A stretch of 64,000 nucleotides of DNA from Escherichia coli (GTDB lineage: Bacteria > Pseudomonadota > Gammaproteobacteria > Enterobacterales > Enterobacteriaceae), in the NCBI RefSeq assembly GCF_001677475.2, contig NZ_CP015229.1. One strand, written 5' to 3'. The position numbers are program-made. Shown piece after piece: positions 61,801 to 64,000 of this stretch (within the stretch, counting starts at the first letter, position 1; each line of letters opens with the position of its first letter).

Positions 61801-64000
61801 GATATAAAAAAGGCCCGCAAAAGCGAGCCTGGTAAATAAATATGGCGCGTTGTACTGGATTCGAACCAGTGACCGATTGCTTAGAAGGCAATTGCTCTGT
61901 CCGACTGAGCTAACAACGCATGATGCAGATAATGGACCGCCATCGAGGACTTGAACCCCGCACCAACAACCCTGTTATCGTGTCGTCTGCTCTTCCTGAT
62001 GAGCTAATAGCGGTATGTTATGGTGGCCCTTGCTGGATTTGAACCAGCGACCTGGCGATTATGAGTCGCTCGCTCTCACCACTGAGCTAAAGGGCCGGGC
62101 GCAGGATAATAACGGTACGTAACTAATTCTGCAATATCATCCGTTCTGACTGACTAAATCCTGAACTTCCCTGACCGTCGAACCCGACCCCATGAAAAAA
62201 TCTGCAACCAGATCTCCCGGACGACTGCTTGCGCTGATTATCTGCTGCAACATTTCTGCCGGTTTTTCGCACGGATGTTTCCCGGGATAGTACTGCACCG
62301 GTTTATGCGTCCACACATCGGTGTACGGTACCTGCACAGTCACACCGAAATACCGCCGCAAATTTTTATATTCTCTCAGCAGTTCCGTATACTGCCGGTT
62401 CAGTTCACTGTATGTGCTGACCAGCTGGTGGTGTGGCTTTTCCAGTTCCCCGCGTTGATGTTTTTCTGCTGCAACACGCGCAAACAATGCCTGCAGTTTT
62501 CTGTAATCATCCTCGTTCGGTAACTGCCACTGACTGGTACCAAACCAGTGCGACACCATGTTTTTCTTTCCGGTGGCTTCCGCTATCTGTTTTGACGTTA
62601 TTCCCAGTGATTCACGCGCATCACGAAAGTAAGAAATCAGCGGGGCCATGACGTGCTGTTTTAGCTCGCGCCCCTTTGCCGCATAGCCGTCATTTTTGGG
62701 CTGGTATGGCCCCTGATAATGTTCTGCAAACAGAATGCGTTCTGTCGCCGGGAAATACGCCCGCAGGCTTTCCTTGCTGCACCCGTTCCAGCGCCCGGAC
62801 GGCTTCGCCCAGATAATGTGATTCAGCACATTAAAGCGTTCACGCATCATGATTTCGATATCAGATGCCAGGCGATGACCACAGAACAGGTAAAGACTTC
62901 CGGCGGGCTTTAATACCCGCCAGAACTGCGCCAGACACTGGCCCAGCCATTTCAGGTAATCATCGTCGCCCTTCCACTGGTTATCCCAGCCCTCGGGCTT
63001 CACTTTAAAGTATGGCGGGTCTGTGACTATCAGGTCGACAGAGTTTTCCGGTAAGGCCTGGATAAATTCCAGGCAATCAGCGTTGATTAATTCACAACTG
63101 GATATTTTTACAGTATCAACCATAGATCAATAAGCACTTCTCTGATAGGCTCATTCCGCTTTTGCGCAAAGCTGATGGGCCTGAGGTTTGCTTGTGACCT
63201 CAACGCATGAGCAAATGGCTGGCAGGTGCCGCTAACACCCACCAGCCGCCCATTACCACAAATTAAAAAACCTTCACTGCGGAAGGCGTCTGTAACAACC
63301 GAACTGATAATCTGCCAGACCCGCCATAACAAGCTGGGTCAGTATTAACTGGCAACGTTCGTGTGAAAGGTAAGTATTCTGCGCAATCTCCCCGACGGTC
63401 GCCGGTTCGGTGACGCTTAATTCATTAAATACCACTCTGGCGGTTTCGGTCATATCTTGCTGTTTTAGCATGTCTTTTCCCTTTTCCGGTTAACGTGACA
63501 TACCAATAACTCTTGTCGAAAAAGCCAGCAAGCTGAAAGACCAGTATTCGCAACCACCAGCGCGTTTAACGTCCCGTGCCGCTTTCCGGGCACAAAAAAA
63601 ACCGCTCAGCGCGGGTTTAAGCTGTGTGGCAAAGTAACCACTCTTAACACATTACAATAACTTTTGCGTACGCGTTAGCTCTTTTGTATATTTAACTTTT
63701 CTCTAATTCTAAAGGTAAAAGGTAACGACTAGTGAAAGCGAACGACTACCTGTTTGGTCTTCAGGCAAGAAACATCTCTTTCAGGCTTCTTCAAGGCGAA
63801 TTAAAGTATTTTAATATGAAGTCAGCTAGGGGGTGGACAGAGTTGCTATCTGATTATGCAAGTAATAATGAAAAGGATATAATAAATAATCTCAAGGAGA
63901 TTTACCTCAGCCAATTGAATTACAGCAATCGGGCCGTATTTTTTGCTCAACTGAATAATATCACTGACGCAATCCTCTTGAAAAAAACCTTGTTAAATCT

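Follow-up and report, generated by a model that had tools for sequence, protein, structure and literature searches.

A deletion allele of the M.EcoGII-family methyltransferase gene in an Stx2g prophage of Escherichia coli, probably inactive and preceded by a conserved structured leader

Does the DNA methyltransferase gene that lies upstream of the Shiga toxin (Stx) genes in an Stx2g prophage of Escherichia coli still encode a working enzyme? The locus occupies the last 3.5 kb of the window, by which we mean the whole 64,000-nucleotide (nt) stretch of contig NZ_CP015229.1 (assembly GCF_001677475.2) that was analysed. A preliminary description had read a 328-amino-acid open reading frame (ORF) there as a late-expressed orphan methyltransferase that would methylate progeny DNA and help to evade restriction or bacteriophage exclusion (BREX)-type defences. 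We find that the gene is a member of the M.EcoGII family from which 24 residues have been lost just after the cofactor-binding FxGxG motif, and that this copy therefore probably methylates nothing. Only one copy of the gene is present in the window (tblastn), and four features of it carry the argument:

62137..63123, minus strand: M.EcoGII-family beta-class adenine methyltransferase gene, deletion allele (328 amino acids, compared with about 350 in the native enzyme)
63010..63021, minus strand: motif IV, D-P-P-Y, residues 35–38, catalytic, intact (translation, family alignment)
62182..62196, minus strand: motif I, F-M-G-S-G, residues 310–314, cofactor-binding glycine loop, intact (translation, family alignment)
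62172..62179, minus strand: 72-bp in-frame deletion junction, where one copy of the repeat GACGGTCA is left (DNA alignment)

We characterized the enzyme using profile, protein and nucleotide comparisons. The Pfam model PF01555 (N6_N4_Mtase) matches residues 29–323 of the 328-residue protein (E = 3.6e-37), the D-P-P-Y motif is invariant in a 36-sequence family alignment, and the order of the elements—motif IV, recognition domain, motif I—is that of the beta class, bearing out the permuted motif order given in the preliminary description. The protein is 89% identical over 323 residues to M.EcoGII, the sequence of which was machine-read from a PDF (the supplement of PMC11551740) and contains a few errors, and in 90% clustering it groups with E. 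coli and Shigella proteins of 348–354 residues. Among phage records, the Stx2e phage phiP27 comes closest (92.6% nucleotide identity; 85.5% identity to the phiP27 enzyme by tblastn), followed by many Stx2 phages, phage 1720a-02 (88.8% nucleotide identity in the methyltransferase region) and Shigella phage SfV. M.EcoGII is a 349-residue beta-class prophage enzyme of E. coli O104:H4 C227-11 that methylates adenine in any context, in double- and single-stranded DNA and in RNA, is silent in lysogens and is harmful if constitutively expressed (Murray et al. 2018, PMC5778455); the same paper names phage 1720a-02 as the carrier of a methyltransferase very similar to M.EcoGII (PMC5778455). The 328-residue protein is a member of this family, not a new orphan methyltransferase, and the earlier treatment of it as an uncharacterised enzyme in need of a REBASE specificity search does not hold, given the 89% identity and the known specificity of the family (any adenine). 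Four other candidates, drawn from methylome papers on Shiga-toxin-producing E. coli, were rejected in favour of the M.EcoGII match: M.EcoGIII (CTGCAG), M.EcoGIX (SAY; in addition plasmid-borne), a YhdJ-like enzyme (ATGCAT; 96 bits with the NCBIfam model against a cut-off of 292) and VT2-Dam (GATC). The gene is of an already known kind, and the exact protein has already been deposited and annotated.

What sets the allele apart is its length. Relatives of the protein have 348–359 residues, and the phiP27 and Stx2a_WGPS2 genes are 1,059 nt long; aligned with these two genes, the window shows a single clean 72-bp in-frame gap directly after the FMGSGSTV codons, through which the 24-residue peptide KAAMALGRRAIGVELETxRFEQTV is lost. 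In the closest allele that is still whole, that of an Stx2g prophage (locus L014), two perfect copies of a 9-nt direct repeat (GACGGTCAA) mark the end points of the deletion, 72 nt apart, and one copy is left in the window at 62172–62179, an arrangement that points to slippage or recombination between short direct repeats. The deleted segment is kept by all of the other family members in the 36-sequence alignment (35/35, down to 51% identity), and conservation reaches at least 90% at 14 of its 24 positions, among them G324, R325, G329, V330, E331, L332 and E333. Outside the deletion, the only departure from a position with at least 90% conservation is D61G, which lies within the range of intact relatives. 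Because only this residue departs elsewhere, the deletion looks recent, and progressive pseudogenisation was rejected for want of any further decay. The 12 non-synonymous and 25 synonymous codon differences from the nearest intact allele (excluding the region of a misplaced gap) are ordinary divergence between alleles and uninformative on relaxed selection.

The lost segment belongs to the part of the enzyme that follows motif I. The full-length protein scores 150.2 bits with PF01555 (profile positions 1–219 of 221), whereas the 328-residue protein scores 128.9 bits (positions 1–202). In an AlphaFold2 model of the full-length phiP27 enzyme, strand 305–308 and the glycine loop are followed by helix 315–322, strand 326–331 and helix 334–351 (pLDDT, 88–94), and the last three elements fall within the most confident part of the model. 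Mapped onto these predicted elements, the deletion takes most of helix 315–322, all of strand 326–331 and the start of the C-terminal helix, leaving incomplete the cofactor-binding sub-domain in which a helix is followed by a strand with an acidic end for the ribose of S-adenosylmethionine (SAM). The strand that follows motif I is, in the class I methyltransferase fold, internal to the central (Rossmann) sheet, and its loss should disrupt folding too. The closest solved homologue is M.BceJIV of Burkholderia cenocepacia (PDB 8URK), in which Glu262 and Ile263 contact the cofactor analogue. The M.BceJIV cofactor contacts align (HMMER) to E331 and L332, both deleted, and to F310, which is kept; by this equivalence, the deleted Glu-Leu pair would be what holds the ribose and adenine of SAM. 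On these sequence comparisons and the model, we give a probability of roughly 0.8 to the 328-residue product being unable to bind its cofactor, probably misfolded and so catalytically dead. The preliminary description had stated that its claim would fall if careful alignment revealed inactivating mutations in the catalytic motifs, and the deletion of the cofactor-binding helix and strand directly after FxGxG is in essence such a change.

Some points weigh against an inactive product. The in-frame deletion leaves a readable, open frame with no decay beyond D61G, from which the protein could still be made; the internal position of the lost strand is taken from general knowledge of the fold rather than from the model coordinates; and AlphaFold2 cannot predict protein stability. 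We regard it as unlikely that the protein is instead an active orphan methyltransferase, expressed late and shielding progeny DNA from restriction or BREX. Such activity would be in keeping with the intact D-P-P-Y and FxGxG motifs, the open ORF with its conserved leader and start, the non-specific activity of the family enzyme M.EcoGII (PMC5778455) and the persistence of the allele, unchanged, on about 20 contigs. The helix and strand of the cofactor pocket are gone, however, including the Glu/Leu equivalents of the ribose and adenine contacts in M.BceJIV; none of the 35 relatives tolerates the loss of the segment, and among about 120 family clusters just one other allele is without the region (P0149, truncated at residue 331). 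Other short alleles in the family are without part of the linker or the N-terminus. The earlier proposal of a late orphan enzyme protecting progeny DNA thus stands in part: for the M.EcoGII family, evasion of restriction through methylated progeny DNA is the rationale given in the literature (PMC5778455, PMC12707154), but this copy is probably dead through its 24-residue deletion.

We give slightly less credence still to the deleted protein having been kept for a non-catalytic role, either nucleic-acid binding through its helix-turn-helix domain or dominant-negative poisoning of co-resident M.EcoGII-type dimers. Neither the recognition domain (approximately residues 160–237) nor the dimer interface defined in the SUPREM paper (residues 97–110 and 116–140) is altered, the dimer is considered the only working form of beta-class enzymes (PMC7544214), potential partners may be at hand in that the number of places matching the methyltransferase region (which also contains tRNA genes) has a median of 2 per E. 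coli genome and reaches 16, and the ORF is without further decay. Against this, there is no evidence of selection, all copies being identical, like one recent clone, and a protein without a core strand may simply be degraded. The most improbable reading is that the gap is a sequencing or assembly error in a gene of full length. It would fit the absence of the junction from every complete RefSeq E. coli genome and phage record searched (5,426 and 50,697, respectively; a 120-nt junction query matches only as two pieces spanning 192 nt), and the junction was also absent from all 80 IMG/VR loci retrieved. Yet about 20 contigs, drawn from several independent assemblies, encode the identical 328-residue protein (ANO90427.1 and others), in every case in the order Q, three antisense genes, 65-residue ORF, methyltransferase and stx2, and the window tail is 100% identical to one such contig; protein and junction together recur in a GenBank chromosome of 5.5 Mb and in at least four independent assemblies, on which ground an assembly artefact was rejected; the allele is real but rare. 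A repeat-flanked, exactly in-frame deletion is, moreover, a typical biological event. An M.EcoGII-family gene inactivated by deletion remains the reading that we prefer.

Read along the minus strand, the final 3.5 kb of the window holds a terminator-like hairpin, a 65-residue ORF, a 150-nt gap, the 328-residue ORF, tRNAs, stxA and stxB, in this order. The features around the methyltransferase gene are as follows:

63594..63618, minus strand: late-operon terminator, tR'-equivalent (hairpin and run of 8 T)
63274..63471, minus strand: 65-residue ORF, predicted winged helix-turn-helix (translation, AlphaFold2 model)
63262..63287, minus strand: small hairpin and T-run across the stop codon of the 65-residue ORF (terminator scan)
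63124..63254, minus strand: the methyltransferase gene's structured 5' leader, which starts with AATGGGCGGCTGGTGGGTGTT
61843..62096, minus strand: tRNA block, with an ileZ-type tRNA(CAT), a degenerate tRNA-like stretch and tRNA-Arg(TCT) (two tRNAs called by ARAGORN and Rfam)
60511..61752, minus strand: stx2g A and B subunit genes (protein identity to annotated Stx2g)

This layout agrees with the preliminary description, which had correctly placed both ORFs (62137–63123 and 63274–63471, minus strand) between a putative late terminator and the tRNA–stx block; the hairpin at about 63594–63618 lies on one side and the tRNAs, stxA and stxB lie on the other. The tRNA(CAT) (62021–62096) and tRNA-Arg(TCT) (61843–61919) are called by both ARAGORN and Rfam. 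The toxin genes (stxA, 60793–61752; stxB, 60511–60780) are of type Stx2g, with 89 of 89 residues of the B subunit and 316 of 319 residues of the A subunit identical to proteins annotated as Stx2g in NZ_CP169399.1 (the A subunit shares 299/319 residues with Stx2e of phiP27 and 305/319 with Stx2a), and they are the next genes on the late transcript of the methyltransferase. Between the two tRNAs lies a degenerate tRNA-like stretch (approximately 61933–62013, minus strand) that neither ARAGORN nor Rfam calls, that is annotated as 'tRNA-OTHER' in related RefSeq genomes and that occupies the site of argN in Stx2a phages. Just 3' of stxB, the small RNA STnc100 is matched at full length (Rfam, 147.6 bits), along with a weak, sub-threshold match to Esr41 (60238–60436, minus strand, and 60081–60171, plus strand, respectively).

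The position of the gene is shared widely. The order antiterminator, terminator, (small ORF), methyltransferase and holin/lysis genes is found in SfV, phiKO2 and phages of Vibrio and Aeromonas, and in prophages of Salmonella, Cronobacter, Mixta, Enterobacter, Klebsiella, Erwinia, Scandinavium and Trabulsiella; altogether, the late-operon position is seen in at least 13 other phages or prophages. Stx phages differ in that tRNAs and stx separate the methyltransferase from the lysis genes. Their late promoter is active constitutively, with termination at tR' during lysogeny (PMC7547250). Late, Q-dependent expression of the methyltransferase gene is well supported by this synteny, and the earlier label 'late-expressed' is upheld by a position in the Q-dependent late operon that is conserved across phages of at least 10 genera.

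In alignments, the hairpin at 63594–63618 coincides with the annotated terminator of SfV, and five phages, including phiP27, Stx2a_WGPS2 and 1720a-02, conserve it. Its folding energy in the window is only −6.7 kcal/mol (z = −0.56, no better than shuffled sequences), compared with −17.7 in phiP27, −11.7 in Stx2a_WGPS2 and −14.1 in SfV. Of the four related loci, L004 and L005 combine the weak terminator variant with the methyltransferase deletion; L003 is without the exact weak-terminator string, and L006 does not reach that far upstream. We speculate that a leakier terminator 5' of the intact, toxic enzyme could have favoured its inactivation.

Three antisense genes lie between Q and the terminator. 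They encode proteins of 221, 130 and 350 residues, are whole in L003 (1286–3393) and in the window run off the edge (63731–64000, plus strand). Considered as possible restriction partners, they were rejected: scans gave no Pfam match, only marginal PADLOC models of non-nuclease type (E of approximately 0.007–0.009) and PHROGs of 'unknown function', with no sign of a nuclease or known defence system among them. The earlier remark that no restriction enzyme adjoins the gene is consistent with this, none being recognisable among the 65-residue ORF, the tRNAs, stx2g and the three antisense genes, and the locus is without a recognisable adjoining cognate endonuclease gene of the kind that defines a type II restriction–modification system. 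Other phages carry other cargo at the site of the antisense genes: a GIY-YIG nuclease in phiP27, HicAB, a KAP nucleoside triphosphatase or an AAA_13 protein.

The 65-residue ORF had been suspected earlier of encoding a small helix-turn-helix-like regulator. It is 92–98% identical in phiP27, Stx2a_WGPS2, 1720a-02 and SfV and approximately 50–83% identical in other genera, corresponds to phrog_331 (unknown function) and carries the NCBI annotation 'TrmB family transcriptional regulator'. Its Pfam matches are all sub-threshold (DprA_WH, 16.7 bits against a cut-off of 22.9; TrmB, 15.8 against 25.6; MarR_2), and there is no NCBIfam match. The AlphaFold2 model (pLDDT 92.4) has helices at 9–16, 26–33 and 37–49 and strands at 53–56 and 59–62, the arrangement of a canonical winged helix, and the best Foldseek matches in the PDB are the winged-helix domains of MarR, IclR and O-methyltransferases, with the RNA-binding winged helix of SelB also matched (template-modelling (TM) scores of 0.7–0.8, all with E > 1e-3). 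A winged helix-turn-helix fold is thus predicted with high confidence, and as far as the fold is concerned the earlier suspicion is borne out by the model and the Foldseek scores. The ORF is absent from 8 of 28 genuine loci with leader and methyltransferase and from phiKO2, indicating that it is not obligatory for the methyltransferase. Across its stop codon, the hairpin at 63262–63287 has a conserved stem and a loop, containing the stop codon, that varies across phages and genera; this hairpin may act as a second terminator, one that could be melted when the 65-residue ORF is translated.

The leader between the two ORFs is the only part of the locus that might be new. Its first 21 nt, AATGGGCGGCTGGTGGGTGTT, were found as an exact match in 29 of approximately 100,000 species-representative genomes, and in 26 of these an M.EcoGII-family ORF starts 130–136 nt 3' of the match (one match was due to chance). 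The genomes include those of Providencia and Morganella, the enzymes of which are only 58–62% identical to the query (the phiP27 enzyme); on this comparison, the leader is better conserved than the protein it precedes. Across 37 leaders from approximately 20 genera, the structure comprises one long hairpin and a multi-helix domain, with 93.2% of cells paired as opposed to 26–39% in slid controls. Eleven pairs change on both sides, a number reached by none of 500 shuffles, a control that related sequences can exceed without any structure. The last helix ends 1–2 nt 5' of the AUG and has compensatory changes in 5 of its 10 pairs, and frequent G-U pairs indicate the sense RNA as the structured strand. 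An overlapping ORF of 74 residues was rejected as the reason for conservation, given that single-nucleotide indels between clades break the frame; a known RNA was likewise rejected, there being no Rfam match at E ≤ 1 in a search that covered the known SAM and S-adenosylhomocysteine riboswitches.

In homologous loci of Vibrio and Aeromonas (L011, approximately 1840–1965; L012, 1835–2050), an ORF for a Com-like zinc finger lies directly upstream of, or overlaps, the methyltransferase start codon, and by analogy suggests that the enzyme family is under translational control of the Mu com/mom style. The leader in the window may similarly throttle translation of a toxic methyltransferase. Extending this, the novelty of the locus could reside in its control region rather than in the enzyme, as an undescribed cis-regulatory RNA that throttles the methyltransferase and is perhaps opened by the 65-residue protein (compare Com of Mu) or by a small ligand; we put this forward tentatively, as an idea with somewhat less in its favour than against it.

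Loss of the methyltransferase has also occurred elsewhere. In phage P13374 (O104:H4, Stx2a; L007 2501–2567), only the last 67 bp of the gene are left between Q and the tRNA/stx block, and the 65-residue ORF and the leader are missing too; this is an independent loss of the module, which is dispensable. Enterobacter sp. Bisph1 (L103, approximately 2717–3130) holds another decayed copy of the gene, with an intact leader, a start codon reading AAG and a match limited to residues 3–95.

The history that we propose starts from an M.EcoGII-type module that forms the first coding unit of the late operon in many lambdoid and related temperate phages. In the intact phages, the gene behind the late terminator would be silent in the lysogen and transcribed only upon read-through by the Q antiterminator, and the enzyme would then methylate adenines of the phage DNA in any context, thereby blocking most adenine-sensitive restriction. 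This protective role of M.EcoGII was established in vitro and by plasmid expression and is inferred for phage infection (PMC5778455). In the Stx2g prophage lineage, slippage or recombination between the copies of an 8–9-nt direct repeat would have produced the 72-bp in-frame deletion, removing most of the helix after FxGxG, the next beta-strand with its Glu-Leu pair and the start of the C-terminal helix. The product would most likely be without cofactor binding, probably misfolded and so catalytically dead, and the 65-residue winged-helix gene, the structured leader, the tRNAs and stx2g are still intact.

As a methyltransferase, the gene is ordinary—a member of a characterised, commercially used family in its usual phage position. 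Annotation pipelines nevertheless label the allele as a DNA methyltransferase despite its partial cofactor pocket, and predictions of the methylome or of defence evasion for this Stx2g lineage should not rely on it. The deletion allele and the near-complete loss in P13374 (933W-type) show that Stx phages can do without the non-specific methyltransferase and lose it repeatedly, which fits its toxicity. The leader and the winged-helix ORF offer an experimental entry point to the question of how phages hold back a dangerous enzyme until lysis.

Compared with known systems, the locus has relatives at several distances. M.BceJIV has the beta-class fold of the M.EcoGII-type phage enzyme, with G-S-G-T followed by a helix and then by a strand ending in Glu-Ile/Leu, but it is a chromosomal regulator specific for the sequence GTWWAC, its recognition domain is short, and the similarity is distant (E of approximately 1e-24) and limited to the two halves of the catalytic domain. 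The mom gene of Mu is, as is the methyltransferase here, a late, toxic DNA-modification gene that is silent in lysogens, and it is kept under translational control; in the window a structured leader encloses the start region and may have a similar effect. Mom is, however, not a methyltransferase, and the window is without a Com-like ORF and has the winged-helix ORF in its place. M.EcoGII and its paralogue M.EcoGI resemble the 328-residue protein in their beta-class order of motifs, in having a helix-turn-helix recognition domain at the centre and in residing in a prophage, whereas M.EcoGII keeps the 24 residues after FMGSGSTV that are missing here, and ends in ...LIV where the deletion allele ends in ...VSQNG. 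The nearest counterparts are phiP27 (L24, 352 residues), Stx2a_WGPS2 (gp29), 1720a-02 and SfV (orf48), which have the same small winged-helix ORF, leader of approximately 150 nt and methyltransferase as the window, the region being 88–93% identical in nucleotide sequence to the first three and SfV being matched by protein only (82.2%). In all four the methyltransferase is full length, unlike the shortened allele of the window; in SfV the lysis genes follow it directly, whereas in the window, phiP27 and Stx2a_WGPS2 the tRNAs and stx lie in between.

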